In this document: positions 12,514-31,851 of the stretch, one piece after another | Numbering within the stretch: position 1 is the stretch's first letter | How the letters are laid out: each line of letters begins with the position of its first letter | Position numbers and translations under genes: made by a program | NCBI GenBank assembly: GCA_052034235.1 | Contig: JBPOIT010000012.1 | Location: 34,161-98,160 of the forward strand | Source of the DNA: Candidatus Levyibacteriota bacterium | GTDB lineage: Bacteria > Patescibacteriota > Microgenomatia > Levybacterales > UBA12049 | Length of the DNA stretch: 64,000 bases | Direction: 5' to 3' | Notes under the pieces: generated by a model | Database searches by the model: none | The model's input: only the letters and a program-made list of their open reading frames with translations | What the model was told of the DNA's origin: nothing

Positions 12514-13039
12514 AAGGTCCAATAATGATATCTGGATTTGCCCGCCCGCGCTCGTCTGTATCCATTCCGTACCCTTCAAGCCATACATCAGGCAGTACAA
12601 ATCCTACGTATTCAGGTTCATACACGGCTTCACGTTTTGACGATTTGGAAATCAAGACACATGATTTGACAGATGCAGCTCCACGTTCTGTAAAGAGTTC
12701 TGCCAGATACCCCAAACTCACACCAGTGTCAAACACATCATCAACGAGTAAAATATGTTTGTCCTTTGGATCAAAATCAATATCATGAACAAGTTTAGGC
12801 TCTTTTGATGATTCAGTTCCCGTGACATAAGTGCGTAGTGTAATAAAACACAACCGTTGGTGTGTACAGTTCGCTTGGTACAACGCCCGTTCCAAATCAG
12901 CTGTAAAGACATGTGCTCCTTTGAGAATGCTGACGAGCATAAAGGGCTGCTTTTTATAATCTATGCTAATACGTGAAGCGAGCTCTTTCACTTTTTGGGC
13001 AATGTCTTCTGCTTTAACCAGTATTTTTTGCTCTGTCAT
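12491..13039 (-). CDS. hpt: Hypoxanthine(-guanine) phosphoribosyltransferase
   Basis: 182 aa with the PRPP-binding motif 'ILLVDDVFDTGVS'. Confidence 0.85.
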   Translation of the reverse strand: MTEQKILVKAEDIAQKVKELASRISIDYKKQPFMLVSILKGAHVFTADLERALYQANCTHQRLCFITLRTYVTGTESSKEPKLVHDIDFDPKDKHILLVDDVFDTGVSLGYLAELFTERGAASVKSCVLISKSSKREAVYEPEYVGFVLPDVWLEGYGMDTDERGRANPDIIIGPSTLETES

Positions 13040-14607
13040 GGGGTCTCTGTTCTTTCTGTGTAGGGAACGAGTTTAAACACTTTCACCACTGAAACATCTG
13101 ATTCTTTTATGATAGCCGCTCTTCCAAATGCTGCCACATCAAATAATGGATGGCCAAGCGGTTTGCAATGTATTTCTTCACAGACTACAAGAAGCTGCCC
13201 CGTGACAGTTTTACGCTGAGGATCGTTGATCGGATTATCAAGCTGCACAGGTTTATACCCCAGAATATCCAAATAATATCTGTAGGCATGATCTGAATTC
13301 CCACCAGAAATTAAAGCAAAATTATACGGTTTATCCTCGGTTTGTTTTATCACAAATTCTGCAATTTTTTTCACCTGATCACGCTGTCTATTGGGTTCAT
13401 TTTGAAATTTATGATGCGAAAGCAAAAAGCCAAACATACCTAAAAAGATAACCATACTTACCGTTATGCCGATAAAGTGCCGTTTTTTTGCAGTGCCAAT
13501 ATCATATATTCGGGAGAGCAAATTACCCGTCAGAAGAAACGGCAGCGGGAAAATAAACGTGAAAAGATAATCATAGACTTCCTTCTTATAAAAGCCGAAA
13601 AAGAATACGCCCAGAAAAAGCCACATCGCAAGAAGCATGGTGACAAATTTATTTTTGGTGAGAAACAGATACACAATTGAGGCAATTGCAATGACCATCG
13701 CGAGTAGTCCCCAGAATTGCAACGTAAGCAGTGGTACCTGCATAAATCTGTCAGGTGTTGGGAAGTCTACAAGAAGACGTGCAAAGATGCGGAAAAAGAC
13801 ATCGGAAATCGTTCCAAAAAAGGTGCCTCCTACTTCTGATTCTTTGGTTAAGGTATCGCCAAAAATGAATTTGCTAATTGCCCGAGTATTTTGAAATTCG
13901 TGACGGAATTCAAATGCGATAAATGGTGAAAAGCCAATCAAAAATCCGGCAAAAACAAACACATAATGTCTGAGTGTTTCAAGCACTTTTATTCTGGTAT
14001 TCATGAGCCACTCGGCAAAGAAGATATAGAAAAAGATACTAACGGCAAGAAAGAGCGAAAGATAATGCAGCTGCATACAAATTCCAAGTAAAAAGCCACT
14101 GAAAACGAAATACTTCCACGGTCGAGCAGAAGCAATGCCCTTAAAGACCATGTAAAGCGTCAGAAGTGAGAAAAACGGCAACACGTTAGGATTCCATGAC
14201 GAGTGTGAATAGTTAATAACTAGCGGAGAAACTGCGTAGAGTCCAGCCGCAAAAAGTCCAGCCCGTGTATCAAAAAACTTCTTTCCAACGAAATAGATAA
14301 GAAGTACAGCCGCTGTACTAAAAAGCGCAACCATGATTGCAGGTCCCACGGGATCAAGTTTAAAGAGCCACAGAAACGGCGTGATCATATAATAATACGC
14401 CGGTCCCATAAAGAAGTCTCCAGCCGAGGAACGAGGCCCCAGAAGTGTAAAATCGCCTTCAAGAATACTTTTGGCGACAAGGACATCTCTCCCCTCATCT
14501 CCGAGAAATGTCATATAGTCCGAAATTCGATAAAGCCGCATAAACGCAGCCAAAAGCAAAATCCCCCCCAACAAAACCCATGAAAGCTTCTTATTCATAA
14601 CAAACAA
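13036..14607 (-). CDS. GT-C family membrane glycosyltransferase (GT39/PMT- or ArnT-like, polyprenol-phosphate sugar dependent)
   Basis: 523 aa and polytopic. The first extracytoplasmic loop carries the 'R..ISDYMTFLGDEGRD' DE motif typical of the PMT_2/GT39/GT83 families. Confidence 0.72.
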   Translation of the reverse strand: MFVMNKKLSWVLLGGILLLAAFMRLYRISDYMTFLGDEGRDVLVAKSILEGDFTLLGPRSSAGDFFMGPAYYYMITPFLWLFKLDPVGPAIMVALFSTAAVLLIYFVGKKFFDTRAGLFAAGLYAVSPLVINYSHSSWNPNVLPFFSLLTLYMVFKGIASARPWKYFVFSGFLLGICMQLHYLSLFLAVSIFFYIFFAEWLMNTRIKVLETLRHYVFVFAGFLIGFSPFIAFEFRHEFQNTRAISKFIFGDTLTKESEVGGTFFGTISDVFFRIFARLLVDFPTPDRFMQVPLLTLQFWGLLAMVIAIASIVYLFLTKNKFVTMLLAMWLFLGVFFFGFYKKEVYDYLFTFIFPLPFLLTGNLLSRIYDIGTAKKRHFIGITVSMVIFLGMFGFLLSHHKFQNEPNRQRDQVKKIAEFVIKQTEDKPYNFALISGGNSDHAYRYYLDILGYKPVQLDNPINDPQRKTVTGQLLVVCEEIHCKPLGHPLFDVAAFGRAAIIKESDVSVVKVFKLVPYTERTETP

Positions 14608-14659
14608 CTACCACCCATTTTAATATAACTGTGGAGGATATACAATCGAAAGCGGTGTA

Positions 14660-17401
14660 CTAATACACGTATGCGGAGAGATCTGTTGTAGACCAGGTTG
14701 GACCTGTTGTCCAGTTGCTTGGTAGCGTTGTCAGATTTGTTTCTTGACTCCCAACACTTGTTCCACCAGATGCTTTATCTCTGAAGCGCACTATGCCGCG
14801 GTTTCTGGGACTGAGAACAGCAATCCAGTAGTTTGTTCCTTGTGTTATGGTTGTAGTCGGAAGCGTCAATATATTCCAACTGCCTTCTACTGTATTTGTG
14901 ATTTCAGCTTGCGAGAGAAGCGTTCCTGGGTTACCATTGTTGTCTGTATAGATACCCACCCGAACGCGAGTTGCAGCATTATCGTTATTGAGATAGAGAG
15001 CAATTGTATTTGCAGTACCTGATGTGAGAGCAGTGTACTTGAATGCTTCAGCTGAACCTGCACCGTTTGAGTCTTGATATGCTTCAAGTGTATCATTACC
15101 CACGAGTACTGTCGGGAGTGGTCCATCGGGGGTCATATTGACATACATTGAAAAGAGCTGATTTGTCATCGTCGGATTATTTGGAAAGCTTAATGGCCAG
15201 GCTCCAAAGTTTTGAGCATAATACGCTCCAATATTCTGCTCTGATGTTGTAATGTATAAATTATTCACATCATCACTTGAGGCGTTTGTGTTATACATTA
15301 ACCAATACGATGTTAGTGGACTAAAGGAGGCCGTAATGGGAAGTGTATTCCAGCTATTTGCTGTTAGCGTTCCTACAGTTGTTTCAGCAATCTTCGTTCC
15401 TGGCTTGCCATTTGCTTTGGTAGTATATATCGCCATTTGATACTCATTATTCGGTGAAGTATCTATATCTCCTACATACGCCGAGATACTCTCAACCGTT
15501 CCTCCAACAGGTCCTACAGTAAATTTTGTTCCGTTCATGACGTTCCGATTATGACTATCTTCAAATTCTCCGGGTGTCGGATAACCGATTGGTTGGGAAT
15601 ACTGCTTAATTCCGAAATGTACGGTTGTGTTTGCAGTCAGTGGAACTAAGACAGGATTGGTTGTTACCGCTGTATAGCCATTCGGCATCGTAAGTGTGAC
15701 GGTATAATTGCCGACTGGAAGAGCTGACAACTCATATGCTCCTGTTGTGTTTGTATTTACCGTTTGGCTTCCATCTCCTATAAGAATGACTTCAGCTCCC
15801 TCATATCCATTTTCTCCACTATCTTGAAATCCATTTTGGTTAATATCAACATACACACTTCCATTGATGACATACGTTGGGACAGATGTTGGAGTAGGTG
15901 TATCTGTCAGCGTTGGAGTTGGGGTATCCGTTGGTGAAGGGGTGGGCGTGTCTGTAGGGGTCGGTGTTGCTTGTAATTTCCATAGCTTCCATTCTTGCTC
16001 CCAGCCACAAGATTCGCAATTTGTACTAAATAATAACGAGTTATCAAATACGGTGTTTGGGGTGGGATAATTTGAACTGTTTCCTGGATTTAAATCTGCA
16101 ACAATTGAGGTTCCATTTGCAGTACCATCACTTTGCCAAATTTCAGTTCCATGCACACCATCATCTGCGCTGAAATAAATTGTAGTACCAAATACAATAG
16201 GTCTATTAAAATTAGGGAATGCATTATTTCCCGGATAGACATCTTTCACCATGCTGACTCCTGTACCATCAGTTTTCCAAAGTTCATAACCATGACTGTC
16301 ATCTCTAGCTGTAAAATACAAATTATTTCCCATAGAAGCAGTTACTTGAGGAATAGGCATTTGAAGCTGCGTTATTTGTACAGTCCCTGCTGCTGTACCA
16401 TCAGTTTTCCAAAGCGATGAACCTTGGCCATTACAATTGTTTACAAAAATGACATTATTATTTGAAAATCCTAGTACAAATGCAGCTGAATATTGAGTGC
16501 ATGGGTTGACATCAGCAACCATGGTTGTACCTGTTTCGGTTCCATCACTCTGCCACACTTCTTGTCCGTGTATTCCATCATTGGCTGTAAAGTATAATCG
16601 GTTATCGATGTCTTTTAACTCACTGTCACCTGTTGCTGAACCAAGCGTATTGAGGTTAATAAATGAATTCGCGCTGCCTGGATTAATATCCTGGACAATA
16701 TATGTGCCGGCCTCAGTTCCATCACTGCGCCATAATTCTTCGCCATTAATCGGGTCAGAACCGATAAAATACGCAACACCATTGAGTGTTGTCCCTGGAT
16801 TGTTGACTATCCGAACATCACTTATTTGATATGTGCCGGCCTCAGTTCCATCACTACGCCATAAATGAATTGAAGGATTACCGTTCGAACCCGTGTTTAC
16901 ATTAAATATAGTAGTATTGTTTATTGCAGTTAATAAAGGTTCGCCTGAGCTGATGCCTGCTGACGGATTAACAGCTGTAACCCGAACAGTCCCTTCAGAT
17001 GTACCGTCACTTTTCCAAAGTTGTTGTGTCCATCCGTCCGCGGTCATAAAAAAAAGCGTTCCATTGACGTCAGTCAATGAAACTGGTCCCTGAGTGCCAG
17101 GAAAAGATTTTACCATTGTGGTACCGGTCTCTGTTCCATCGCTCTTCCAAAGATTACATCCGGTTCCATCGTTCGCTCCAAAAAACACAAGATTGCCTGC
17201 ATGTACCACACCGAATTTAACGGCTGAGGGACATCGTGTAAGGGTTGGTGATATAGATGTAGTGGTTGCTGCAATCGTGACTGAAGTGGGAGTAACTAAA
17301 GAATAAATAATAGCAGCCAAAACTAAAGATAAAGTGCGAAATATAATCTTATTTTTTTTTATTCTGAATGCATTCATTACTGTAAAAAATAATAGTATCA
17401 T
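14660..17401 (-). CDS. Large secreted ELWxxDGT-repeat protein with a Pro/Thr linker, Cna-B/SdrD-B-like domain and two C-terminal ~150-aa beta-sandwich-like repeats
   Basis: A signal/TM N-terminus is followed by 8 copies of the '(E)LW(K/R/Q)(S/T)DGTxxGT' motif and the linker 'TPTPTDTPTPSPTDTPTPTLTDTPTPTSVPT'. A domain 'VDINQNGFQDSGENGYEGAEVIL...GAYELSALPVGNYTV' and duplicated C-terminal modules follow. Confidence 0.8.
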   Translation of the reverse strand: MILLFFTVMNAFRIKKNKIIFRTLSLVLAAIIYSLVTPTSVTIAATTTSISPTLTRCPSAVKFGVVHAGNLVFFGANDGTGCNLWKSDGTETGTTMVKSFPGTQGPVSLTDVNGTLFFMTADGWTQQLWKSDGTSEGTVRVTAVNPSAGISSGEPLLTAINNTTIFNVNTGSNGNPSIHLWRSDGTEAGTYQISDVRIVNNPGTTLNGVAYFIGSDPINGEELWRSDGTEAGTYIVQDINPGSANSFINLNTLGSATGDSELKDIDNRLYFTANDGIHGQEVWQSDGTETGTTMVADVNPCTQYSAAFVLGFSNNNVIFVNNCNGQGSSLWKTDGTAAGTVQITQLQMPIPQVTASMGNNLYFTARDDSHGYELWKTDGTGVSMVKDVYPGNNAFPNFNRPIVFGTTIYFSADDGVHGTEIWQSDGTANGTSIVADLNPGNSSNYPTPNTVFDNSLLFSTNCESCGWEQEWKLWKLQATPTPTDTPTPSPTDTPTPTLTDTPTPTSVPTYVINGSVYVDINQNGFQDSGENGYEGAEVILIGDGSQTVNTNTTGAYELSALPVGNYTVTLTMPNGYTAVTTNPVLVPLTANTTVHFGIKQYSQPIGYPTPGEFEDSHNRNVMNGTKFTVGPVGGTVESISAYVGDIDTSPNNEYQMAIYTTKANGKPGTKIAETTVGTLTANSWNTLPITASFSPLTSYWLMYNTNASSDDVNNLYITTSEQNIGAYYAQNFGAWPLSFPNNPTMTNQLFSMYVNMTPDGPLPTVLVGNDTLEAYQDSNGAGSAEAFKYTALTSGTANTIALYLNNDNAATRVRVGIYTDNNGNPGTLLSQAEITNTVEGSWNILTLPTTTITQGTNYWIAVLSPRNRGIVRFRDKASGGTSVGSQETNLTTLPSNWTTGPTWSTTDLSAYVY
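15900..15995 (-). repeat. Imperfect tandem DNA repeat encoding a (T/D/S)PTPT Pro/Thr linker
   Basis: The plus strand reads as iterated GGNGTNGG units (the antisense GVGV ORF 15864-16070 is an artefact of this). Confidence 0.6.
16066..17164 (-). repeat. Eight tandem ELWxxDGT protein repeats (coding)
   Basis: A ~45-aa periodicity of LWxSDGTxxGT motifs runs within the CDS 14660-17401. Confidence 0.6.
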
Positions 17402-17552
17402 TGATGACTTGCGTTGTAAAGATGACGCATTACATCATCTAAAATCTTGATGAACACTATTAGTTATCTCAGATAAAAAGACTTCTCTATATGAGCGAGG
17501 GTTAAGCCCAAACAAACTACTAGTTCTTAATAAAACTCCTACATGGCCAGGA

Positions 17553-17732
17553 ATGACCGGTAAGGAAGACTTAATAATCATCAACACTGAACTACTCCCT
17601 GTTCTTGGAGCGAAAGCTGAGGTTTATAATAATAAAATCGAAAAATTAAACAAAAATGAAAATTACCAATTAGCCATAAACCAAGATGGAGTTCTTATCT
17701 ACAGAAAAAAATCTTTTACCTTAAGCGAATAA
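17553..17732 (+). CDS. Unannotated 59-aa ORF in the 344-bp intergenic region (hypothetical; may be spurious)
   Basis: Translation is MTGKEDLIIINTELLPVLGAKAEVYNNKIEKLNKNENYQLAINQDGVLIYRKKSFTLSE. It is opposite in orientation to both flanking genes, with no SD. Confidence 0.2.
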   Translation: MTGKEDLIIINTELLPVLGAKAEVYNNKIEKLNKNENYQLAINQDGVLIYRKKSFTLSE

Positions 17733-17745
17733 CCAACCATTTACA

Positions 17746-19515
17746 CTAATTACCTTCTATAATAAATGTTCTCTTTTGTATATTCATTTTTATTGGTTCG
17801 TTGTTTTTAATGTTATTTACAAGAAAAGCGTTATGGGGATTTAGTTGATGGGCTTTATTTGCTGCATTAAGAGCTACCTGTTTATTGTTTTGTTTGTATT
17901 CTGAAAGTGCAAAGAGTAACCATAACTCTGAGTCATTTGGATAATCCTTTACTGCTGCGCGCATGAAATCTGTGGGGACGGGTGTATTTTCATAGAAAAT
18001 CATCATCGAAGCGTATCCTTTGTATGTATTGATTTGGTGTTTATGCGGATAAAAGGCGTTATATGATTTTGCCTTAAGTGCCTTTTCAAAATAGACTTTT
18101 GCTTCTTTTGGCTTTTCTGTTTCGGAATAGACAATTGCTAGATTGAGCAGATTAATTTCGTTCGGCCTAAAACTGATTGATTTCAGATAATGAATACGTG
18201 CTTGTTCATACCCTTTTCTACTTCCATATTCTGCACCCAAACTATTTTCTACAGCAAAATTATTTGATACCAGACTGTCTTGCGTGTGTAATATGATTCC
18301 GTTTTGCCAATCGGTGTTTCTGATCATCGTCCGTGTTCCAAATAATATCAGAACCATTATCGCAAATAGTACCGCAATGTGTTTAAGAGAAGGAAACCTC
18401 GTAAGTAAATATGTAGATGCAATGCCAAGCATCCCTAACATGCCGATCATTGTAAAATAAAACCATCGATCTCCAACTGTCATATCAAGAGGAAAAATGT
18501 TTGCATGGAAGAAAAGTCCTATGATAAACCATGTTAAAAAGAATAACCAGGGTTTAAAGTATTTATTCTCATTCTTGAATAAAAAGTTTGCAAACCCAAT
18601 TACCACACTGAAGAATACGGTATCTACTATCAGAGGGAATATAAATGTCTGAAAATCTATTGATGTGATTACCCAATGCTGCATATATGAAAGCTCCATT
18701 GGATAAAAAAAAGTCTTTACATAGTAAAAGAGTATAAGTGGAAGTGTCATAAATCGTTCCGCAAGAGTGGCATCAGCAATCGGCGCTAAAGGACGATCCG
18801 CTAGTCCTACCTGTCCGATAAAAAAACGTATACACAGATAAATTACAAAAGTTATCAGTGACCCTATGAAAAGTTTTGAAAAGTATTTTTTCTTAAATAG
18901 CCATGCATATAACACTGCGACGAAAATAAAAAGTATTCCTGTCTCCTTTGTGAGAAGTGTCAGAAAAAATGACACAAAAATAACAGCAAAGAGCTTATTG
19001 GTTACTTTTTCTTTTAATAAAAGAACGAGTGGGATTATGCCAAAGAGGAAGAAGATAGGATTCACAGATTGAGCAATATAAGAAACAGATTCCACATTCA
19101 TGGGATGAATGAGAAAAGCGACTGTTACAAAAAAGGCAATCCATGGTGTTAAAAATTTGCGAAAGAAAATGTAAACAAATCCAACACAAACAATATGAAG
19201 CAGTATCTGCACAAAATGATAGAAAAATGCATTCGTTGTAAACATCGAATAAAGCAGTGAGAAATACGCAGCGGGAACTGGACGATATTGCCCAACCGTA
19301 TTAAATGCATTAACCCCAAACCATGAACCTACATTTACTATATGTGTTTGAAGATTATTAATAATATAAAGCTTATCGTCAGCAACAAACTCATTGAAAA
19401 GCATGTTGGCAAATACAACAAGTCCAATTACGAGAATCAGATGCAAAGCTTTAAAGGTTGTTAGCGGAACAAAGAGGCTCTTCAAAGAAAATTCATCCTC
19501 ATTACTCTGCGGCAT
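17746..19515 (-). CDS. TMTC-like GT-C membrane glycosyltransferase (DUF1736-type 'FV.DD' motif) with C-terminal TPR repeats
   Basis: 589 aa. The first loop carries 'NEFVADDKLYIINN', about 10 TM helices follow, and the C-terminal ~170 aa are TPR-like ('YEQARIHYLKSISFRPNE', 'YFEKALKAKSYNAF', 'ALNAANKAHQLNPHNA'). Confidence 0.65.
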   Translation of the reverse strand: MPQSNEDEFSLKSLFVPLTTFKALHLILVIGLVVFANMLFNEFVADDKLYIINNLQTHIVNVGSWFGVNAFNTVGQYRPVPAAYFSLLYSMFTTNAFFYHFVQILLHIVCVGFVYIFFRKFLTPWIAFFVTVAFLIHPMNVESVSYIAQSVNPIFFLFGIIPLVLLLKEKVTNKLFAVIFVSFFLTLLTKETGILFIFVAVLYAWLFKKKYFSKLFIGSLITFVIYLCIRFFIGQVGLADRPLAPIADATLAERFMTLPLILFYYVKTFFYPMELSYMQHWVITSIDFQTFIFPLIVDTVFFSVVIGFANFLFKNENKYFKPWLFFLTWFIIGLFFHANIFPLDMTVGDRWFYFTMIGMLGMLGIASTYLLTRFPSLKHIAVLFAIMVLILFGTRTMIRNTDWQNGIILHTQDSLVSNNFAVENSLGAEYGSRKGYEQARIHYLKSISFRPNEINLLNLAIVYSETEKPKEAKVYFEKALKAKSYNAFYPHKHQINTYKGYASMMIFYENTPVPTDFMRAAVKDYPNDSELWLLFALSEYKQNNKQVALNAANKAHQLNPHNAFLVNNIKNNEPIKMNIQKRTFIIEGN

Positions 19516-19564
19516 AGACCTATTCTATATAAAAAAGGTGTGTATATAAACAGTGGGGGTTAGG

Positions 19565-21711: not shown

Positions 21712-21761
21712 GGTTGTATGATACTAAACTTGAGGCTTTAATGGAAGAGTGAGTATAAAAA

Positions 21762-22733
21762 CTATCTATTTACCTTTTCGCGTTTGAGGTCTGATTTGAC
21801 CATCATTTCGACAAGTTCTTTGAAGCTTGTTTTTGGTTCCCAGCCAAGTTCATTTTTGGCTTTACTATAGTCACCAATGAGATAATCAACTTCTGCAGGT
21901 CTTATGAATTTAGGCTGGTCTGAGATAACGTACTCTTCCCAGTTCGTAATTCCTGCTGCTTTGAAAGCAAGTTTGGTAAATTCTTCAACAGAATGTGTTT
22001 CACCCGTTGAGATGACATAATCTTCTGGTTTTTCCTGCTGCAGCATCAGCCACATCGCTTCAACATAATCACCTGAGAAACCCCAGTCCCGCTTCGCTGA
22101 CATGTTACCTAGTTCTAATTTCTTTTGCTTGCCAAGCTTAATGCGTGCAACTGCGTTGGTAATCTTGCGAGTGACAAATTCAATACCTCGTCGTGGAGAT
22201 TCATGGTTGAATAAGATACCAGAGCATGCAAACATATCGTAACTTTCACGGTAGTTTAATGTGATGTAGTGACCGTATACTTTGGCAACACCGTATGGAC
22301 TTCGTGGATAAAAACGTGTTGTTTCTTTTTGAGGCGTTTCTGTCACTTTACCAAACATCTCAGAACTTGATGCTTGATAGAATTTGATTCGTGGATTAAC
22401 CTTTCTGATTGCTTCGAGAACTCGTGTAACACCAAGTGCTGTAAATTCGCCTGTGAGAACTGGCTGATCAAAAGAAGTTTGGACAAAAGACATAGCAGCG
22501 AGGTTATAGACCTCATCCGGCTCAGCGACTTCAATTGCTTGTGTCATTGAGGATGAATCAAGCAGATCCGCTGATAATAATTCAACATCATGTTGAATAT
22601 GACTGATATTTTCGATATTTGGTGTACTTAAACGTCTGACGGTACCAAAAACTTTATATCCTTTTTTAAGTAAAAGTTCTGCCAAATATGATCCGTCTTG
22701 TCCTGTGATTCCTGTAATAAGTGCTCGTTTCAT
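21762..22733 (-). CDS. gmd: GDP-mannose 4,6-dehydratase
   Basis: '[27 protein letters not shown]' is the canonical Gmd N-terminus; the length is 323 aa. Confidence 0.9.
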
Positions 22734-22750
22734 AATGTTATTTACCTATT

Positions 22751-23695: not shown

Positions 23696-25024
23696 TTATC
23701 GTCCTACTCCAACATAGGTGAAACCAAGCGCTTTTGCTTTTTCAGGCTCGTAAATATTTCGTCCGTCAATCAGATATGGTGTTTTAAGCAGTGTCTTTAT
23801 CTTCACAAGATCAAGCTGTTTAAATTCGTTCCATTCAGTCACGACGATAAGTAAATCTGCATCTTTTGCAGCTGCATAGGCATCGTTTACAAAGTGTACA
23901 TTATTTTCATCCTTCAAAATTCTCTTCCCGTTTTCAAGAGCTATTGGATCAAAACTCTTTATTTTTGCGCCCAATCCAAGAAGCTCACGGATAATAATAA
24001 CCGAAGGAGCATCTCTCATGTCATCAGTATCAGGTTTAAAGGAAAGCCCCAAAACACCAATTGTCTTGCCATTCATATCTTCACCCAAGAGCTTCTTTGC
24101 TTTTTTAACAATACCCATTATCGCATCTTTATTTACCTGTTCAACTTCTTTTAAGATGCCAAAGTTGTAGCCGTAGTCATTTGCGATCGCGATAAGCGCT
24201 TTAACATCTTTCGGAAAACAACTCCCCCCGTACCCTGCTCCTGGATTGAGAAATGCTGTTCCAATTCGCTTATCCATACCCATTGCTTCAAGCACATCAA
24301 TACCGTTGGCACCTGTCAGTTCTGAAAGTTGCGCGATTGCGTTGGCAAATGAAATCTTTACTGAAAGAAACGCATTGGATGCGTACTTCACCATTTCTGC
24401 CGTCTCAATGTTGCATAGGAATAATCCTCCTTCACGACTTTCTCCTTTTATCGTTGTCATGAGGGGTTTGTGTAGTTCGACAAGTTTTTCTTCCGCTTTT
24501 TTGGATTCGGTACCGATAACAATTCTATCTGGATATCTTGTATCTGATATTGCTTGTCCTTCTCGTAAAAACTCTGGAACAGATGCAATATCAAACTGCG
24601 CATCTTCTGGCTTTACCTTGGTCATGAGTTCCTTTACTTTACGATTTGTTCCAACAGGTACGGTACTTTTAACATTCACCACTGTGTAACCATTGAGATG
24701 TTTTCCGACTTGCTCAGCAACTTCATAGACTACTCTTAGGTCTGCTTCACCTGTTGGTTTTGGAGGTGTACCCACTGCGATAAACACAACATCGGATTCT
24801 TTAACTGCTGGTGAATAATCAAGCGTAAACAAAAGTCTGCCTGCATCTACATTGCGTTTAACAAGTTCTTCAAGACCAGGTTCATAAATTGGAATGATGC
24901 CTTTTTTGAGGTTATTTACTTTTTCAGGCGTGTGTCCGATTACCCAAACAGTATTGCCGAGGTCTGCAAAAACCGCTGCTGATACCAAACCTACATAACC
25001 ATGTCCTACAAATGTAATTGTCAT
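23696..25024 (-). CDS. ugd: UDP-glucose 6-dehydrogenase
   Basis: The N-terminus 'ITFVGHGYVGLVSAAVFA', the catalytic-Cys region 'GGSCFPKD' and the 442-aa length match the UDP-glucose/GDP-mannose dehydrogenase family. Confidence 0.8.
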   Translation of the reverse strand: MTITFVGHGYVGLVSAAVFADLGNTVWVIGHTPEKVNNLKKGIIPIYEPGLEELVKRNVDAGRLLFTLDYSPAVKESDVVFIAVGTPPKPTGEADLRVVYEVAEQVGKHLNGYTVVNVKSTVPVGTNRKVKELMTKVKPEDAQFDIASVPEFLREGQAISDTRYPDRIVIGTESKKAEEKLVELHKPLMTTIKGESREGGLFLCNIETAEMVKYASNAFLSVKISFANAIAQLSELTGANGIDVLEAMGMDKRIGTAFLNPGAGYGGSCFPKDVKALIAIANDYGYNFGILKEVEQVNKDAIMGIVKKAKKLLGEDMNGKTIGVLGLSFKPDTDDMRDAPSVIIIRELLGLGAKIKSFDPIALENGKRILKDENNVHFVNDAYAAAKDADLLIVVTEWNEFKQLDLVKIKTLLKTPYLIDGRNIYEPEKAKALGFTYVGVGR

Positions 25025-25040
25025 AAAAATTTTTGAGGTT

Positions 25041-25922
25041 TTATTCCTTGGCTTTAAATTCTCTTAGGGATTCCTCAAAACCCTTCATACTGACTCCAAG
25101 GTTTTTTATTTTATCATTATTTAATGTTAAATTAAATGGCCTCTGTGCACGATCTTTAAAGAATTCGTCACGGGTCGTCTTGCTGATAAGGCTCTTATCA
25201 TAACCGAAGATCTCAGCAATCGCAAGTGCAGCAGCGTAAGGTGTCAAACTTTGACTCCCCACCACATGATAGATGCCACGTGCGTCAGCTTCAATAAGTT
25301 TTCCAAGAGCGAGCGCTATGTCATCAAGATAGGTCGGTGTCATAAGATGATCGGTGACACCGGCAATTGGAAGACCTGCTGCGAGTCTGTCTTTCATCGC
25401 ATGATAAAAGTCTTTTTTCTGAGCAAACGGTTGCTCTTGAAATGGATACGCTATGCGGACGATGAGATACGGAATACCTGCATTTCTCACAACCTCTTCA
25501 CCGTCAAATTTTGTCTGGGCATACCAATCGATAGGATTAGGTTTGTCGTCTTCTTTATAACCGCTGCCTTCAGGAAGGGAGCCGTCAAAAACAAAATCAG
25601 TTGAAATATAGATAATCTTTTTATTTGAAACCTTTGCTGCTTCAACCACATTTTTTGTGCCTAAGACATTTATTTTATAAGCAGCACCTTCTTCTCCAAG
25701 CGGCTTATCTTTTTCGCAGCCATCAACATCTGCTTTAGCAGCTAAATGTAAAACCCAGCCGTGTTCAGTATCATCTCTGATTGCAGAAAGGGTTGAAGCA
25801 TCAGTGATGTCAGCGCCTGTCTCAAGACTCAAATTGTCAAAAGAATAGTGTGGCAAAAGTGCAACAATACGTGACCCCACAAGCCCTGTAATGCCAATAC
25901 CAAATATGTTTGTTTTATTCAT
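25041..25922 (-). CDS. rfbD: dTDP-4-dehydrorhamnose reductase
   Basis: RmlD substrate-binding pattern 'NPIDWYAQTKFDGEEVV'; 293 aa; within the rml cluster. Confidence 0.7.
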   Translation of the reverse strand: MNKTNIFGIGITGLVGSRIVALLPHYSFDNLSLETGADITDASTLSAIRDDTEHGWVLHLAAKADVDGCEKDKPLGEEGAAYKINVLGTKNVVEAAKVSNKKIIYISTDFVFDGSLPEGSGYKEDDKPNPIDWYAQTKFDGEEVVRNAGIPYLIVRIAYPFQEQPFAQKKDFYHAMKDRLAAGLPIAGVTDHLMTPTYLDDIALALGKLIEADARGIYHVVGSQSLTPYAAALAIAEIFGYDKSLISKTTRDEFFKDRAQRPFNLTLNNDKIKNLGVSMKGFEESLREFKAKE

Positions 25923-25924
25923 AG

Positions 25925-26476
25925 TTATATCTTACCTTCTCGCTGTAGTTTATCATAGAGCAACAGAGCAGCAACATGGAGTGAAACAAACATTTCTCCA
26001 GATTGTACTTTTGCCAATACTTGTTCAAACGGTAGTTTGAGAACTTCAATTTCCTCATCATCGTCAAGCTCCGTGTTACCCTCTGTTATACCTGTTGCAA
26101 CGAACACATAGTTTTTGGAATTCATGTTCGCTGAAAGTTCCCATGTCGCAAGTAATTTCCACTTTTGAGCAGTTAACCCAGTTTCCTCTTTTAATTCTCT
26201 CTTTGCTGATTCCAAAGGATCAGTGTCATTCTCAATGTTTCCTGCAACAAGCTCAATCAGTTCTTTCCCAAACGCATCCCTGTACTGTTTTTCAAGATAC
26301 AATTCACCATTTTCAGTGAAAGGCAAAATGGTAACAACTGAATTTCTTTCAATAAAATCTTTGGTGAATGTTTTTCCCTTGCGCTTTATTACTTTTCGCT
26401 TTAGCCTAAAATACTTTGCTTCATAGACTGTTTCTTCAGAAAGCAGTTCCGATTTATTTTCCGTATTGTCTGTCAT
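25925..26476 (-). CDS. NUDIX hydrolase (nucleotide-sugar or ADP-ribose pyrophosphatase-like)
   Basis: The Nudix box is 'GNIENDTDPLESAKRELKEETGL'. I chose the start at 26476 (MTDNTENK...), which overlaps the rmlB 3' end by 23 nt. Confidence 0.75.
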   Translation of the reverse strand: MTDNTENKSELLSEETVYEAKYFRLKRKVIKRKGKTFTKDFIERNSVVTILPFTENGELYLEKQYRDAFGKELIELVAGNIENDTDPLESAKRELKEETGLTAQKWKLLATWELSANMNSKNYVFVATGITEGNTELDDDEEIEVLKLPFEQVLAKVQSGEMFVSLHVAALLLYDKLQREGKI

Positions 26477-27464
26477 AATACTCCTTATACTCACCTGATT
26501 TGACCCGCTGCCACCAATCTGTATTTTCTTTGTACCATGCAACTGTTTTCTCCAAGTATTCATCAAAATTATGCTGAGGCTCCCAACCGAGTTCTTTTTT
26601 TATCTTGGACCAATCAACATCATAACGTCTGTCATGGCCGGGTCTGTCTTTGACATATTCAATAAAACTTTCATCCTTGCCTAGGAGTTTGAGCAGCTTT
26701 TTTGCAATTTCGATATTTGGATAGAGTTCAGTCATACCACCAACCAAATACGTTTCACCTATTTTCCCTTTTTGCAAAACCGCATCAATCGCCCGTGCAT
26801 GGTCATCAACATACAACCAATCTCTGACGTACAAACCATCACCGTATACCGGGATTTTTTTACCTTCAAGGACATTGGTAATAGCAAGCGGAATGAATTT
26901 TTCCGGAAACATATATGGGCCGAAATTATTGGAACAATTGGTTATGGTGATAGGAAGACCATAGGTAGTATAGTAGGCACGTACTAAATGATCAGACCCA
27001 GCTTTACTTGCAGCGTAAGGACTTCGGGGATTATAACTCGTTTTTTCATTAAATTTATTTGGGTCTTCAAGTGAAAGTGCTCCAAAAACTTCATCCGTTG
27101 AGACATGGTGAAAACGCTGTATATTATTTTTCAAAGCTGCATCAAGGAGTACTTGTGTGCCGACGACATTGGTGGTGACAAAAACTGCTGGACCTGTTAT
27201 CGAGCGGTCGACATGTGTTTCTGCGGCGAAATGAACAACAGTATCTATTCCCTGCATTGCGTTATTGACAGTCTCAACATCTGTGATATCACCTTGGATA
27301 AACGAATATTTGGGATTACTTTCGACGGTGCTGAGATTTTCCAGATTACCCGCATACGTCAATTTGTCAAAGTTGATAATGCTGTCATCCGGATGATTTT
27401 TGAGCCAATAGAGGATAAAATTAGAGCCGATAAACCCCGCTCCGCCGGTCACTAGTAATTTCAT
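26454..27464 (-). CDS. rfbB: dTDP-glucose 4,6-dehydratase
   Basis: Motifs 'LLVTGGAGFIGSNFI' and 'YAASKAGSDHLVRAY' in a 336-aa protein. Confidence 0.9.
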   Translation of the reverse strand: MKLLVTGGAGFIGSNFILYWLKNHPDDSIINFDKLTYAGNLENLSTVESNPKYSFIQGDITDVETVNNAMQGIDTVVHFAAETHVDRSITGPAVFVTTNVVGTQVLLDAALKNNIQRFHHVSTDEVFGALSLEDPNKFNEKTSYNPRSPYAASKAGSDHLVRAYYTTYGLPITITNCSNNFGPYMFPEKFIPLAITNVLEGKKIPVYGDGLYVRDWLYVDDHARAIDAVLQKGKIGETYLVGGMTELYPNIEIAKKLLKLLGKDESFIEYVKDRPGHDRRYDVDWSKIKKELGWEPQHNFDEYLEKTVAWYKENTDWWQRVKSGEYKEYYDRQYGK

Positions 27465-27471
27465 TCACTAA

Positions 27472-27915
27472 TTATTTTACGACACCTTGTTCAAGTTCTT
27501 CTTGTGAATATTCAACTTGTTCGTCTTTAAGCGTAGGATCATAGGCTGGATCTGGATAGTTAATAAGCCATGCTTCTTCCGTGCCTATATTTTCAAGTCC
27601 AGTAGCAGCATTTTTTGGAATAAACATTCTTTGAGGTTCTGCAGCGTCAAGGATCGTTTCTGTCTTTTCCCAAGCAGTTCCGTTATGCTCATAGGTCGTA
27701 ATTTTCATCTTTCCCTTGAGTGCTACGTATCGAGCTGCACGAACTCTGTGGAGATGATAACCTTTGAATGCACCGGGAAGAGCAGCAGTGAGATATACTT
27801 CAGTTTTCTCGTTGGTGTCTTTATCTTTGTAGAGTTCAATCAAATGACCATTCACATTTTTTGAATGATCATATGTTGTTACTTCCTTAGCGGGTTCAAC
27901 CCGAACAGTTGACAT
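27472..27915 (-). CDS. Cupin-fold dTDP-sugar epimerase/isomerase (RmlC- or FdtA/WxcM-like)
   Basis: 147-aa cupin with the metal/active-site-like motif 'KGYHLHR', placed between rmlB and rmlA. Confidence 0.5.
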   Translation of the reverse strand: MSTVRVEPAKEVTTYDHSKNVNGHLIELYKDKDTNEKTEVYLTAALPGAFKGYHLHRVRAARYVALKGKMKITTYEHNGTAWEKTETILDAAEPQRMFIPKNAATGLENIGTEEAWLINYPDPAYDPTLKDEQVEYSQEELEQGVVK

Positions 27916-27974
27916 TGTATCTTAATATATTACTTGCAAACAAGTTTTTTCGCAATATGGAAATTACTATTCCC

Positions 27975-28718
27975 CTAAAGCTCAATGGCTTTTGTCTCAG
28001 TTTTTTTCACCTTCCAATAACTGTTGGTTTCAAAAAGACTGTCAAACGTCCCTGCATCACTCCAAAATCCATCAAGATTTGCCCAACTTAACTTACCCGA
28101 TTCGATATATATATTATTGACATCAGTTATTTCCAGCTGACCTCTTTCTGAAGGTTCAAGCTTTTTAATGTAACTGAAGACTTTTTCGTCATAGATATAA
28201 AGTCCTGTTACCGCCATATCACTTTTGGGATGTTTTGGTTTTTCTTCAATACCTACTACTTTATTTGAATCTTCTTTATCAAACTCGGCAACACCGAATC
28301 TATATGGATCACGAACTTTTTTGAGGAAAACCACAGAGCCGTCTTTAAAATCTTGTACTGTTTGTGAAATATCTGCGTCCGTTGTGTTGTCCCCTAAAAT
28401 AACGGCAATCGGTCCGCCGTCGGCAAAGTCTTCAGCAAGCGCCAGTGCGTCTGCAATACCTCCATCAGGTTTTTCTTGATAGGAATATTCTAAATGCGTT
28501 ACTCCAAGTTCTTTGCCGTTTTTAAGCACTCCTAGAAAATCTCCAACATGAGGACCACTGGTAACGAGCATGATATCTGTGATGCCTGCTTTAACGAGGG
28601 TTGAAATAGGATAATAAATCATGGGCATGTCATACACAGGAAGCAAATGCTTGTTGGTGACATGTGTAAGAGGATATAATCTTGTTCCGAGTCCGCCTGC
28701 TAAAACAACGCCTTTCAT
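27975..28718 (-). CDS. rfbA: Glucose-1-phosphate thymidylyltransferase-like sugar nucleotidyltransferase (short form)
   Basis: 'VVLAGGLGTRLYPLTHVTNKHLLPVYDMPMIYYPI' is the RmlA signature; 247 aa with no C-terminal extension. Confidence 0.8.
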   Translation of the reverse strand: MKGVVLAGGLGTRLYPLTHVTNKHLLPVYDMPMIYYPISTLVKAGITDIMLVTSGPHVGDFLGVLKNGKELGVTHLEYSYQEKPDGGIADALALAEDFADGGPIAVILGDNTTDADISQTVQDFKDGSVVFLKKVRDPYRFGVAEFDKEDSNKVVGIEEKPKHPKSDMAVTGLYIYDEKVFSYIKKLEPSERGQLEITDVNNIYIESGKLSWANLDGFWSDAGTFDSLFETNSYWKVKKTETKAIEL

Positions 28719-28775
28719 GTTATTGTCCTGATATTATACTATACAAATTACAAAATCAACTCTCTAAATGAGGAG

Positions 28776-29711
28776 TTATTTTTGCACTTTTAACTTAGCT
28801 AGTGCACGTTTGTGCAGTATATCTATGCCTTTATAAATTGTCTTTTGTACAAACGCAGGATACGTTTCACTATAGTTCTTTTTGAAAAAAATTCTCATAG
28901 CTTCAAATCTGGCAGCTTGTACTCGTTTTTTACCTTCAAGATTTGCGGTTGTTATATTTTGTGATTTTTTCTTTATACCGCTTGAAGCACCGCCAATATG
29001 CATAATACTTACTTCACCAACATAATAAATTTTGTAGCCGAGTTTTCTTATGTCATAACAGAACTGCAGATCTTCACCATAAAAGAAATAATCTTCATCC
29101 CACCATCCTATTTTCTCTCCAATTTCTCTTCTAACCAGGAGAAATGCACCTTCTACTGCATCCACTTCATGTGTTGTCCGCATATCCTTCCACCCCTGCG
29201 TGTACCCGGCAAATAATCGACTTTTAGGAAATACCCGCTGCAAACCTGAAAAGTAGGCAAACGCATTCCAGGGAGTTGGGAAACCCCGATGCGAATTAAA
29301 ATCCATCTCACCATCTTTATTAATAAGCTTACAAGACGAAGCACCCGCTTCTTTATGTGCATCCATAAATTCGACCATGTACGTGAGGGTTTTGGGATAA
29401 ACAATTGTGTCGGGATTCAGAAAAAGTATATATCTCCCGGTTGCATAAGGGAGACCTTTGTTATTGCCTGCTGCAAAACCAATATTGCCGCCATTATCAA
29501 TGGGCTGAAAGACTTTAATTTTTGTGTGTTTTTTGTATCCTTCAAATGCAGCAAATGAGCCGTCTGTTGATGCGTTGTCTGTAACGATAACCTCATAATT
29601 TCCTGATGCAACTTCCTTTGGATAATGTTCTTCGATAGAACGAATAGCATCAAGGGTAATCTCTTTTGTATTGTAGGACAGGATGATGATTGATAAATCA
29701 GCTTGCTGCAT
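28776..29711 (-). CDS. Glycosyltransferase family 2
   Basis: 'LSIIILSYNTKEITLDAIRSI', the DxD-like 'VTDNASTDGS' and the 311-aa length fit GT2. Confidence 0.8.
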   Translation of the reverse strand: MQQADLSIIILSYNTKEITLDAIRSIEEHYPKEVASGNYEVIVTDNASTDGSFAAFEGYKKHTKIKVFQPIDNGGNIGFAAGNNKGLPYATGRYILFLNPDTIVYPKTLTYMVEFMDAHKEAGASSCKLINKDGEMDFNSHRGFPTPWNAFAYFSGLQRVFPKSRLFAGYTQGWKDMRTTHEVDAVEGAFLLVRREIGEKIGWWDEDYFFYGEDLQFCYDIRKLGYKIYYVGEVSIMHIGGASSGIKKKSQNITTANLEGKKRVQAARFEAMRIFFKKNYSETYPAFVQKTIYKGIDILHKRALAKLKVQK

Positions 29712-29714
29712 ACG

Positions 29715-30044
29715 TTATAGAACAAAATACGTGATTGCGAAACCGAAGAGGCCGAAGATTGCATACTCAGCAGCTATTTTTACTGTAAGTGAATGGTGAA
29801 TAAATTGATGCAAGATAGACCAAAAGAAATATATTCCTGTGAGAAGTAAGACAATCATTAACTGCATTGATCTATCTGCTGAAGCAAGAAACACTAACAC
29901 CAAACCAGTTACTTGTAGCACAGCAAGCGCTGCATAATACCAGATATGTTTTCGAATTTTTGCTTGAAAAGTTAAATGCTCCACTAGAGTAATTATATAC
30001 CTTATCCTGCAACTGAAACAACCTGAAGTATTACTGTGATACAA
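29715..30044 (-). CDS. Hypothetical small membrane protein (2-3 TM helices), possibly GtrA-like
   Basis: It is hydrophobic and sits between GT2 genes, but the start is uncertain. Confidence 0.3.
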   Translation of the reverse strand: MYHSNTSGCFSCRIRYIITLVEHLTFQAKIRKHIWYYAALAVLQVTGLVLVFLASADRSMQLMIVLLLTGIYFFWSILHQFIHHSLTVKIAAEYAIFGLFGFAITYFVL

Positions 30045-30052
30045 TAAAGACG

Positions 30053-30973
30053 ATGAAGAATGTTGCTGTCGTTACCGTTAATTACAATACTGCAGAGGAC
30101 ACTAAATCGTTCATTGAGTCCTTCGAGAAACTGAATACCCAGGGTCTCACCATGCAAATCATTATCGTTGATAATGGTTCAAAAGAAATATTTACACTTC
30201 CCGAAAAAGCGAAAAAAGAATCATTAACACTCATACGATCAGAGGAAAATACAGGGTTTTCGGGAGGGTTTAACATTGGTATCAAAGAAGCACTCGGCAA
30301 AGGTGTCGACTACGTGCTTATCGTTAACAACGACACGCTTATGCAGAGGGATATGGTTTTGGAATTACTTGAAGTTCTTAATAGTAAACCGGAAATCGGT
30401 GTCACCGCACCTAAGATTTACTTCTCAAAAGGTCATGAATTCCATAAAGACAGATATAAAAAAGAAGATTTGGGAAAAGTGTTTTGGTTTGCGGGCGGAT
30501 ATACTGATTGGAATAACGTCCAAAGTATCCATCGCGGTGTTGACGAAGTTGACCATGGACAATATGACACAGTTGAGAAAATTGCATTTGCTTCAGGCTG
30601 CTGCATGATGTTTAAACGGGAAGTACTCGAAAAAGTAGGATTTTTTGACGACAGATATTTTCTTTATTACGAAGATGCCGATCTCAATGAACGCATCAAC
30701 CGAGCAGGTTACGACGTCTACTACGTCCCTACAGCCGTACTGACACACGTCAATGCTGCATCATCCGGTGGTGCAGGCAATGTTTTGCAGGATTATTTCA
30801 TTACACGTAACAAAATGCTCTTCGGAATGACATATGCACCACTTCGCACAAGAGCAGCTCTTATCAGAGAAAGTATCAGACTTCTCAGAACTGGAAGGCC
30901 TTTTCAGAAAAAAGCCATACGAGATTATTATTTGAGGAAATTTAATAAAGGAACGTTTTTTGATACCCGCTAA
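30053..30973 (+). CDS. Glycosyltransferase family 2
   Basis: 'VAVVTVNYNTAEDTKSFIES' and 'IVDNGSKE' fit GT2. Confidence 0.8.
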   Translation: MKNVAVVTVNYNTAEDTKSFIESFEKLNTQGLTMQIIIVDNGSKEIFTLPEKAKKESLTLIRSEENTGFSGGFNIGIKEALGKGVDYVLIVNNDTLMQRDMVLELLEVLNSKPEIGVTAPKIYFSKGHEFHKDRYKKEDLGKVFWFAGGYTDWNNVQSIHRGVDEVDHGQYDTVEKIAFASGCCMMFKREVLEKVGFFDDRYFLYYEDADLNERINRAGYDVYYVPTAVLTHVNAASSGGAGNVLQDYFITRNKMLFGMTYAPLRTRAALIRESIRLLRTGRPFQKKAIRDYYLRKFNKGTFFDTR

Positions 30974-31851
30974 ATCCCGTCCAGCGCTTTTTGATATGTC
31001 TCCATAAGGTATGCATTTTTAGTCATGTTACCGATTGTCAGTAATAAATTGGCTTTTATAACAAGCATGCTTTTCATAATCGCATATTCTCTTTTTGAAC
31101 GATGTTTTTGATAAAAATATAAAAGATTTTTGTAGATATTAACAATAGCAAATGTTTTATTTGAACTCCCCTGATCTTTATGCAAAACAAATGCATTTGG
31201 GAAGAAATAAACCGCATATCCTGATTGAGACGCGCGGTAACAAAGCTCCATATCTTCAATATACATAAATATCTTTTCATCAAATCCGCCGAGTCTTTTA
31301 AAGACTTCTTTTCGAATCAGCAGCATACCACCCTTTACCCAATCAACTTTTTTGACCTGTTTTGGACTTTTATCAAGTAAGCCTAACTTATGACCTCCAA
31401 TCAGCAAAAGAAATGCAGGCCAAAGTGTATAAAACGTTCCGGCACAGGGTTGAAGTGTCCCATCAAAATTTTTCATCTGACCCCCCAAAATCGAAGCCTC
31501 ACTATGTGTTGCGAGGAAATGAGCCATTTCAAAAATACTTTTGTCTTTTACGACTGTATCGTTATTGAGAAAGAGAATATATTCACCAATTGAGGCTTGT
31601 GCGCCTTTATTACATCCAGCAGCAAAACCTGCATTGGAATCATTGGCTATCACCTGCACGTTTTTATACTGTTTCGTTGTTATTTCCTGATTTAACACGT
31701 CAACTGAATCATCCTGAGAATCATTGTCAACAATAATGAGTTCAATTTTATCCTGAGCGAATTCCTGAGCAAATTGCTCAAAAAGCGACGTCATGCACGC
31801 AAGCGTCAATTCTTTCTTTTTATAATTGAGTGTCACTATCGAAATAACCAT
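30970..31851 (-). CDS. Glycosyltransferase family 2
   Basis: 'ISIVTLNYKKKELTLACMTSL', 'IVDNDSQDDS' and 'MYIEDMELCYR' fit GT2. Confidence 0.8.
   Translation of the reverse strand: MVISIVTLNYKKKELTLACMTSLFEQFAQEFAQDKIELIIVDNDSQDDSVDVLNQEITTKQYKNVQVIANDSNAGFAAGCNKGAQASIGEYILFLNNDTVVKDKSIFEMAHFLATHSEASILGGQMKNFDGTLQPCAGTFYTLWPAFLLLIGGHKLGLLDKSPKQVKKVDWVKGGMLLIRKEVFKRLGGFDEKIFMYIEDMELCYRASQSGYAVYFFPNAFVLHKDQGSSNKTFAIVNIYKNLLYFYQKHRSKREYAIMKSMLVIKANLLLTIGNMTKNAYLMETYQKALDGI

Follow-up and report, generated by a model that had tools for sequence, protein, structure and literature searches.

The window analyzed here is a stretch of 64,000 nucleotides (contig JBPOIT010000012.1), and the subject of this report is a block of glycosylation genes at 13036-31851, which includes two membrane glycosyltransferases of the GT-C fold, a polyprenyl-phosphate-sugar synthase, a large secreted protein, and a series of nucleotide-sugar genes. 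The gene inventory was compiled from an open reading frame (ORF) listing and from Pfam and NCBIfam scans of the window proteins, and it recovered, at the same coordinates, all of the genes listed in a preliminary description of this DNA, including a NUDIX hydrolase and three soluble family 2 glycosyltransferases (GT2s). The block had also been presented as apparently co-oriented, which holds for 17 of the 18 genes, all on the minus strand, but not for the GT2 gene at 30053-30973, which lies on the plus strand. With few exceptions, the near relatives of both membrane enzymes belong to metagenome bins labeled Levybacteria, Roizmanbacteria, Microgenomates, or Patescibacteria, and it is by these names that the window is assigned to a genome of the Candidate Phyla Radiation (CPR), of the Microgenomates/Levybacteria type; tRNA and Rfam searches gave no match that is of use for this placement. 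An identical segment is also found on a 10.7-kb contig from run SRR34217540. The four genes at the center of the analysis are as follows.

13036-14607, minus strand: GT39-like PMT_2 GT-C glycosyltransferase of 523 amino acids (aa), matching PF13231 at E 6e-15
14660-17401, minus strand: secreted surface protein of 913 aa (the ELW protein), with a signal peptide, an ELW propeller head, a proline/threonine-rich (PT) linker, an SdrD_B domain, and a C-terminal region
17746-19515, minus strand: TMTC-like GT-C glycosyltransferase of 589 aa, with approximately 11 transmembrane (TM) helices followed by approximately five tetratricopeptide repeat (TPR) hairpins
19565-20749, minus strand: polyprenyl-phosphate-sugar synthase of the archaeal dolichol-phosphate-mannose synthase (DPMS) type, with a GT2 domain fused to a 4-TM GtrA/DPMS domain

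Judged by profile comparison, the TPR-bearing enzyme is a true TMTC homolog. Residues 4-426 of human TMTC3 were rebuilt from the alignment in the supplement of PMC7801869 and used for hhalign, in which the profile of the TMTC-like family matched the whole membrane domain (363 columns) at a probability of 99.2% (E 2.9e-19), whereas the control profile, that of the PMT_2 family, reached only 1.8%, so that the TMTC3 match is specific. The profiles of the two families align with one another at a probability of just 9.8%, and the distinction between two types of GT-C enzyme, one of them TMTC-like, which had been drawn in the preliminary description, was thus borne out. The AlphaFold models of the two membrane enzymes have pLDDT values of 87.6 and 85.8; that of the TMTC-like enzyme supports a GT-C fold for the membrane domain and contains ten helices at residues 406-570, and TPR_1, TPR_2, and related Pfam models match residues 454-563.

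The published TMTC motifs DD, YRP, HPxxxE, KETG, and (D/E)RxxY are conserved in the TMTC-like family, and the window enzyme presents D46-D47, Y77-R78-P79, K190-E191-T192, and D349-R350-W-F-Y353. Across 34 aligned sequences, D47, R78, P79, E191, D349, and Y353 are invariant, while D46, the other acidic residue of the FV.DD motif, is nearly so. The cadherin and protocadherin O-mannosyltransferases TMTC1-4 (GT105) have the same overall design, a GT-C domain of approximately 11 TM helices followed by non-cytoplasmic TPRs, with homology that extends through the whole membrane domain, and they share the FV.DD, YRP, HPxxxE.V, KETG, and VA(D/E)RxxY motifs with the CPR enzyme (alignment in PMC7801869), although they carry at least eight TPR hairpins, in comparison with approximately five in the bacterial protein. 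Full-length prokaryotic homologs of the TMTCs have been mentioned in passing, as uncharacterized proteins (PMC7801869). From the helices of its model, the window enzyme is predicted to have 11 TM segments, with the motif-bearing loops and the TPRs all on the outer side of the membrane, as proposed for the TMTCs.

The PMT_2 enzyme also has a GT-C fold with an acidic DE motif in the predicted extracytoplasmic loop 1 (FLGDEGRD, D37-E38), which is invariant in 29 orthologs, so that the catalytic acidic motifs attributed earlier to both enzymes are kept on full family alignment. Its C-terminus is a conserved domain of approximately 120 aa with two invariant cysteines. The earlier designation of this enzyme as PMT/GT39-like stands with regard to PF13231 and the DE motif, but the window protein has no match to PF02366 or PMT_4TMC, and no MIR domain, although some of the orthologs carry a precomputed PF02366 match. 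A PDB sequence search with this protein returned no match, and the family profile reaches yeast Pmt2 at E 0.034 only. It differs from the actinobacterial Ppm1/Pmt and fungal PMT (GT39) systems, then, both in its match to PF13231 alone and in its distinct Cys-containing C-terminal domain. The fold of the model is equally near to ArnT, ALG12, AftA, and the PMTs, and the class of acceptor is not readable from either the fold or the motifs. The orthologs, labeled ArnT-like by JGI, are 55-80% identical across the Microgenomates group. A lipid A acceptor, as in ArnT, was set aside on biological rather than structural grounds, given that the synthesis of lipid A or lipopolysaccharide is not known in CPR bacteria.

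The synthase matches PF00535 (E 3e-25) and PF04138, GtrA_DPMS_TM (E 1e-15), and its residues 1-343 align over the full length of the Pyrococcus furiosus Dol-P-Man synthase 5mlz (E 1e-43), far more strongly than with ArnC (E 1e-9) or GtrB (E 5e-5). The presence of a Dpm1-GtrA lipid-sugar synthase beside a GT-C enzyme, as described previously, is thus supported, and given the full-length match, the “fusion to GtrA” corresponds to the known two-part architecture of the archaeal DPMS. The NCBIfam model of PgfS also matches the synthase, though weakly (E 7e-13). The start of the synthase gene overlaps the stop of the preceding gene, which encodes a UDP-xylose synthase (UXS), by 4 nt, and the two genes are translationally coupled, a feature that sets the CPR synthase apart from 5mlz. 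The homology to the DPMS makes mannose the first candidate for the donor sugar. The nucleotide-sugar genes and the soluble glycosyltransferases which follow are listed below.

20746-21711, minus strand: UDP-glucuronate decarboxylase (UXS), identified by structure matches
21762-22733, minus strand: GDP-mannose 4,6-dehydratase (Gmd), TIGR01472 at 434 bits (cutoff 415)
22751-23695, minus strand: GDP-6-deoxy-D-lyxo-4-hexulose reductase (Rmd-type), structure 2pk3 at E 9.4e-82
23696-25024, minus strand: UDP-glucose 6-dehydrogenase, three UDPG_MGDP_dh Pfam domains, TIGR03026 at 435 bits (cutoff 190)
25041-25922, minus strand: RmlD-like reductase, under its equivalog cutoff
25925 to ~26452/26566, minus strand: NUDIX hydrolase, the ORF start probably being near 26452
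26454-27464, minus strand: RmlB, 479 bits (cutoff 365)
27472-27915, minus strand: FdtA-like cupin of 147 aa in the RmlC position, without a PF00908 or NCBIfam match
27975-28718, minus strand: RmlA-like nucleotidyltransferase, under its equivalog cutoff
28776-29711, minus strand: soluble GT2 (PF00535), with the weakest rhamnosyltransferase-family similarity of the three
29715-30044: hydrophobic ORF of 109 aa beside the GT2 genes
30053-30973, plus strand: soluble GT2 (PF00535), with partial rhamnosyltransferase-family similarity
30970-31851, minus strand: soluble GT2 (PF00535), with partial rhamnosyltransferase-family similarity

The decarboxylase is of the UXS type, matching the human UXS1 structures at E 3e-90 and ArnA at only E 3e-21, and there is no aminotransferase or formyltransferase in the locus, which distinguishes it from the Arn systems. 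The Gmd and the Rmd-type reductase are assigned to a GDP-D-rhamnose route. Three activated-sugar routes had been proposed for the block; the GDP and UDP routes are present, but the dTDP route is less clear-cut, in that the RmlC slot holds an FdtA-like cupin which is not recognized by the RmlC models, and dTDP-L-rhamnose is a likely but putative product. The partial matches to TIGR01556 among the three GT2s (E 4e-22 and 5e-20) are both under the cutoff. No priming transferase, Wzx/ABC exporter, polymerase, or LCP ligase was found in those window ORFs that the domain scans or the synteny comparison covered.

The head of the ELW protein contains eight ELWxxDGT repeats (TIGR04534, E 6.5e-103), with a further match to NF041539 (5.8e-7) that falls just below the 30-bit cutoff. 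The PT linker reported in the preliminary description is present, but covers 32 residues (478-509, nt 15875-15970) rather than 31, and is followed by an SdrD_B beta-sandwich at residues 515-582 (E 3.8e-12) and a C-terminal region with weak choice-of-anchor-R matches. A search from this protein recovered propeller-domain homologs in non-CPR phyla only, at 34-42% identity over approximately 45% of the length, and no CPR homolog of the head. The head lies in the GC-richest stretch of the window (local GC of 0.434 against approximately 39%, or 0.39, for the window as a whole). The 344-nt gap at 17402-17745, which separates the ELW gene from the TMTC-like gene, is longer than any other intergenic stretch of the block. 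It contains, according to the Logan gene calls, a 59-aa ORF in the opposite orientation. Consensus scans of 12400-21000 found promoters (21 against 22.4 expected) and terminators (9 against 6.7 expected) at chance level, and are thus uninformative on the operon structure, including this gap, where the ELW gene might have its own promoter. A second PT-linker protein, noted previously as an LTD protein, was also recovered.

34178-35035, minus strand: second PT-linker protein, with a signal peptide, a lamin-tail domain (LTD, E 1e-6, under the Pfam cutoff), a PT-rich stalk, and a C-terminal TM anchor

Five related loci (L079, L081, L082, L083, and L010) were compared for synteny; labels of this kind refer to individual loci in related genomes, with L010 being from assembly JBGTMH01. 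The synthase and PMT_2 genes are adjacent, or 1-3 inserted genes apart, in all five loci and in the window, and the genomic linkage of synthase and GT-C that defines three-component (GT2/GtrA/GT-C) systems is conserved throughout. The pair is preceded by sugar-nucleotide genes, as a full block in L079 and L083, where the gene order of the dTDP-6-deoxyhexose block (25041-28718) is repeated, and as a partial block in L081, L082, and L010. In the closest relative, L079, in which PMT_2 is 80% identical and the GT2 at 28776-29711 is also conserved, the sugar-nucleotide block, UXS, and the synthase are followed at once by PMT_2, beyond which lie a multi-TM/PsbP-like protein, DUF5679, DUF4446, DUF3048, and SecDF, without any TPR enzyme, ELW protein, or HPRT. 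The synthase also directly adjoins PMT_2 in L082 and L083, so that the slot between the two genes is empty in three loci. It is occupied in L081 (5321-6946) by the gene of a 541-aa secreted protein with a signal peptide and repetitive S.DG-type motifs, in which no PT linker or Pfam match was found. In L010, the slot holds two TMTC-like genes followed by the gene of a 913-aa PT-linker/SdrD_B protein; it is preceded by UXS (75% identical, in the same position) and the synthase (61%) and ends at the N-terminus of PMT_2 (70%).

On this comparative evidence, the conserved unit consists of the sugar genes, the synthase, and PMT_2, the conserved partner of the synthase, in a housekeeping neighborhood by SecDF. 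Because the synthase and PMT_2 are directly adjacent in three relatives, the segment 14608-19564, which holds the TMTC-like and ELW genes, looks like an insertion into a variable slot, and this slot seems to gather genes for secreted proteins. DNA alignment of the insertion boundaries with L079 revealed no recognizable repeats or scars. Two further genes adjoin the PMT_2 end of the block.

10870-12513, plus strand: multi-TM protein of 547 aa with a C-terminal PsbP-like domain (PsbP_2, E 1e-6), convergent with PMT_2
12491-13039, minus strand: HPRT-like phosphoribosyltransferase, overlapping the end of PMT_2

The PsbP-like neighbor, which has kept its place in L079 (51% identical) and L081 (26%), with a protein of similar length in L083, may contribute to the glycosylation core as an accessory component. 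The HPRT-like gene has no counterpart at the syntenic position in L079, L081, L082, or L083, and therefore represents a second lineage-specific insertion at the locus.

A scan of species-representative genomes recovered 262 relatives of the TMTC-like enzyme, from which 77 loci, holding 97 genes, were kept. Seven assemblies with several loci yielded 3-8 copies each, often in tandem, and the membrane domain alone, used as the query, retrieves 781 clusters, formed at 50% identity, with E ≤ 1e-30. None of the 77 loci contains a PMT_2 ortholog or an ELW-like protein. The genes adjacent to the TMTC-like genes, annotated with Pfam from aggregate scans, are enriched in surface-protein domains, with CarboxypepD_reg in 13 of 137, SdrD_B in eight, Big_1 in seven, and PKD_4 in six, while an equal number of random non-adjacent genes from the same loci included at most one of each of the first three and three of PKD_4. 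The combined PT and SdrD_B module is encoded by 5 of 144 adjacent genes, in comparison with 3 of 826 non-adjacent ones (Fisher p = 0.0026), and in all five of these loci (L002, L010, L013, L039, and L063) except L010, its gene is located directly downstream on the same strand. Among ten more large genes located downstream on the same strand, six are for surface proteins with Kelch, PKD, CarboxypepD_reg, or Big_1 domains. The head domains of these proteins vary (ELW, PD40, Kelch, transthyretin-like), and it is the stalk that recurs. In a neighbor-joining tree, the window enzyme groups with L002_10001, whose downstream gene is a PT/SdrD_B protein, and the association with surface proteins is found on several branches of the paralog tree. 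The co-occurrence suggested as a check in the preliminary description was thus found for the TMTC-like enzymes and PT-linker/SdrD_B proteins, but, in the 77 loci, not for the two GT-C types.

Other neighbors were also observed. TMTC-like genes are followed by DUF4012 proteins at L023 15188-17203 and L078 11635-13497, and by a PilB-type T2SSE ATPase in L021, which may point to pilus or envelope-assembly substrates. A CAP-domain protein (cysteine-rich secretory protein family) with a PT linker adjoins a TMTC-like gene at L074 4596-5318, and in the window a CAP-domain protein is encoded directly after the glycosylation block (31858-32781, minus strand).

The recurrence of surface-protein neighbors supports the concept of an enzyme-plus-substrate cassette, and the ELW protein is probably the substrate of the TMTC-like enzyme at this locus, as far as gene context can indicate. 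The arrangement that we favor, and to which we give about an even chance, is a two-layer locus for the glycosylation of the envelope, with a conserved, ancestral synthase/PMT_2 core into which a cassette of TMTC-like enzyme and surface protein has been inserted. In the first layer, cytoplasmic enzymes would make the nucleotide sugars, from which the DPMS-type GT2 would load a monosaccharide onto polyprenyl phosphate, and, following the flipping of the lipid-linked sugar, PMT_2 would transfer it to an acceptor outside the membrane. In the second layer, the TMTC-like enzyme, with its catalytic loops and TPRs on the outside, would draw on a lipid-linked sugar of this kind and O-glycosylate the secreted product of the gene immediately downstream, either at the PT linker or on the SdrD_B beta-sandwich, with the TPR domain selecting the substrate.

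A number of observations weigh against this arrangement. Unlike TMTC1-4, the CPR family lacks the RxD which follows HPxxxE, and the D of the metal-binding DW motif is not conserved (the window enzyme has QHW at 279-281). The check with DUF1736 (PF08409) that had been suggested for the TPR enzyme failed, with no match at E ≤ 1 in the 34 aligned members of the family, the window protein included, while the PMT_2 Pfam model matches 19 of these 34. Approximately 85% of the TMTC-like paralogs have no obvious surface-protein neighbor, and the synthase is found near TMTC-like genes in only five of the 77 loci. The enrichment of PT linkers alone is marginal (7 of 144 adjacent genes against 16 of 826, p = 0.066), and, as the adjacent and control genes share 10-kb loci and related genomes, the counts are non-independent and uncorrected for phylogeny. 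The overlap between the UXS stop and the synthase start means that the donor may not be mannose, and the rhamnose routes and the three GT2s suggest a more complex glycan than two layers would explain.

A stronger version of the cassette concept, which we put forward tentatively, as less likely than not, is that the TMTC-like paralogs of the Microgenomates are dedicated O-glycosyltransferases, every copy having the gene of its particular substrate as a neighbor, with the TPR domain recognizing the beta-sandwich/PT-linker stalk of the protein downstream. If so, the paralogs would correspond, in prokaryotes, to the animal TMTCs with their domain-specific O-mannosylation of cadherins, might be related to that process by evolution, and would provide natural enzyme-substrate pairs for the study of how TMTCs choose their targets. 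The substrates of the TMTCs are beta-sandwich adhesion domains, and the CPR genes likewise adjoin genes for beta-sandwich surface proteins, although, unlike TMTC1-4, they are multiplied within the genome and often located beside putative substrates.

Among the alternatives, the one that fares best, although we consider it unlikely, is that the synthase and one or both of the GT-C enzymes add side-chain sugars to a rhamnose wall polysaccharide or a teichoic-acid-like polymer, in the manner of the streptococcal GacI/GacL or SccN, or of CsbB/YfhO, in which case the Rml and Gmd/Rmd routes and the three GT2s would serve to assemble the polymer, and the ELW protein would be merely a neighbor. The conservation of two rhamnose routes and three rhamnosyltransferase-like GT2s beside the synthase/PMT_2 pair is consistent with this possibility, as is the nearness of the PMT_2 fold to ArnT, ALG12, and AftA, reflected in the JGI label, and both the level of identity among the PMT_2 orthologs and their housekeeping context on the SecDF side fit a role in wall building. 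The decoration of the streptococcal SCC rhamnopolysaccharide by GT-A and GT-C enzymes has also been described (bioRxiv 10.1101/2024.05.05.592596). The decoration of a polymer is, however, poorly matched by the lack of a priming phosphoglycosyltransferase, Wzx/ABC exporter, polymerase, or LCP ligase among the ORFs covered, and it leaves unexplained both the TPR domains and the position of the TMTC-like genes upstream of surface-protein genes. The modification of a polymer by PMT_2 and the cassette role of the TMTC-like enzyme could both be true.

It is distinctly improbable, in our assessment, that the TMTC-like enzymes are broad-specificity O-glycosyltransferases which act on PT/ST-rich linkers in general, with paralogs that differ in sugar or linkage, and that the adjacency of the ELW gene is incidental. 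The content of the slot does vary among genomes (empty, the 541-aa secreted protein, or TMTC-like enzyme plus surface protein), the ELW head looks foreign, given its homologs in other phyla and its elevated GC content, PT linkers also occur elsewhere, as in the LTD protein 3 kb away, and most of the paralogs have unrelated neighbors, such as RecA or ribosomal protein S10. Against this, the enrichment of beta-sandwich and SdrD_B domains is significant in comparison with same-locus controls, the association recurs with ELW, PD40, Kelch, and CarboxypepD_reg heads on several branches of the tree, and the order of synthase, TMTC-like enzyme, PT/SdrD_B protein, and PMT_2 arises independently in JBGTMH01 (L010). 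The integrated system of the preliminary description, in which both GT-C enzymes flank their substrate and, together with the synthase and three sugar routes, form one self-contained apparatus for the ELW protein, is very improbable, despite the contiguity, mostly shared orientation, and short gaps of the genes and the same order in L010, since PMT_2 and the synthase are kept without the ELW or TMTC-like gene in three of the five relatives, PMT_2 is near TMTC-like paralogs in 0 of 77 loci, the TMTC-like and ELW genes are 344 nt apart, and the locus has no oligosaccharide-export machinery. Nor does any gene of the window account for the way in which the rhamnose and xylose routes and the three soluble GT2s would supply a single-sugar transfer of the PMT/TMTC type. 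With no exporter, priming transferase, or polymerase among the window genes examined, the term “self-contained” is not supported under either the two-layer model or that of polymer decoration.

The two-layer arrangement nevertheless has close parallels in the streptococcal Pgf (PgfS/PgfM1/PgfE/PgfM2, with Cnm/WapA) and GtrB/PgtC2 systems, which are also those of monoderms. In streptococci, a GT-A enzyme makes the polyprenyl-phosphate sugar and the outward-facing loops of a GT-C enzyme O-glycosylate Ser/Thr-rich regions of surface proteins (PMC5856776; bioRxiv 10.1101/2024.05.05.592596), and Pgf likewise uses two GT-C enzymes. The streptococcal GT-Cs are of the YfhO and PgfM types, without TPRs, whereas those of the CPR locus are TMTC-like and PMT_2, and the CPR synthase follows the archaeal DPMS design, in which a 4-TM domain is fused to the catalytic one. 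The GtrA/GtrB/GtrC, ArnC/ArnT, GacI/GacL, and CsbB/YfhO systems, for their part, modify O-antigen, lipid A, or wall polymers. As the GT-A plus GT-C mechanism is established in streptococci and actinobacteria, the locus belongs to a known kind of system. The novelty resides in the enzyme family, in the expansion of this family within the CPR, and in its pairing with beta-sandwich or beta-propeller surface proteins, which echoes the relationship between TMTCs and cadherins. Searches of the literature found no paper that connects GT-C enzymes or O-mannosyltransferases to the CPR or Patescibacteria.

A number of other features of the window are worth recording. The t6A genes TsaE and Sua5 are located at 33167-34206, and just past the LTD protein, at 35105-37979 (minus strand), are a division-associated PcsB-like coiled-coil/M23 protein, FtsX, and FtsE. 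A nearly complete operon for de novo purine biosynthesis occupies 42563-60321 (plus strand), with a 708-aa PurF-PurN-like fusion (amidotransferase, phosphoribosyltransferase, and formyltransferase domains), PurD, a large FGAM synthase with a separate glutaminase subunit, PurH, PurB, PurK, PurC, two copies of the archaeal-type PurP (DUF1246/DUF1297), and two EamA transporters inside the block. De novo nucleotide synthesis is usually missing from CPR genomes, which makes this operon unusual. It is followed at 60529-62388 (plus strand) by the gene of a 619-aa protein with a C-terminal GH130 domain (beta-mannoside phosphorylase family) and an N-terminal extension of approximately 300 aa, which may be relevant to the mannose metabolism of the genome.

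A life attached to host cells is generally assumed for bacteria of the CPR, yet very little is known of the chemistry of their envelopes. The persistence of a DPMS-type synthase and PMT_2 as a pair points to a core step of envelope glycosylation in the Microgenomates, and the expanded TMTC-like family, located beside adhesin-like genes, points to glycosylated, fast-evolving surface proteins. The way in which the animal TMTCs select their substrates is not understood, and bacterial homologs encoded beside candidate substrates would represent tractable models of this process.

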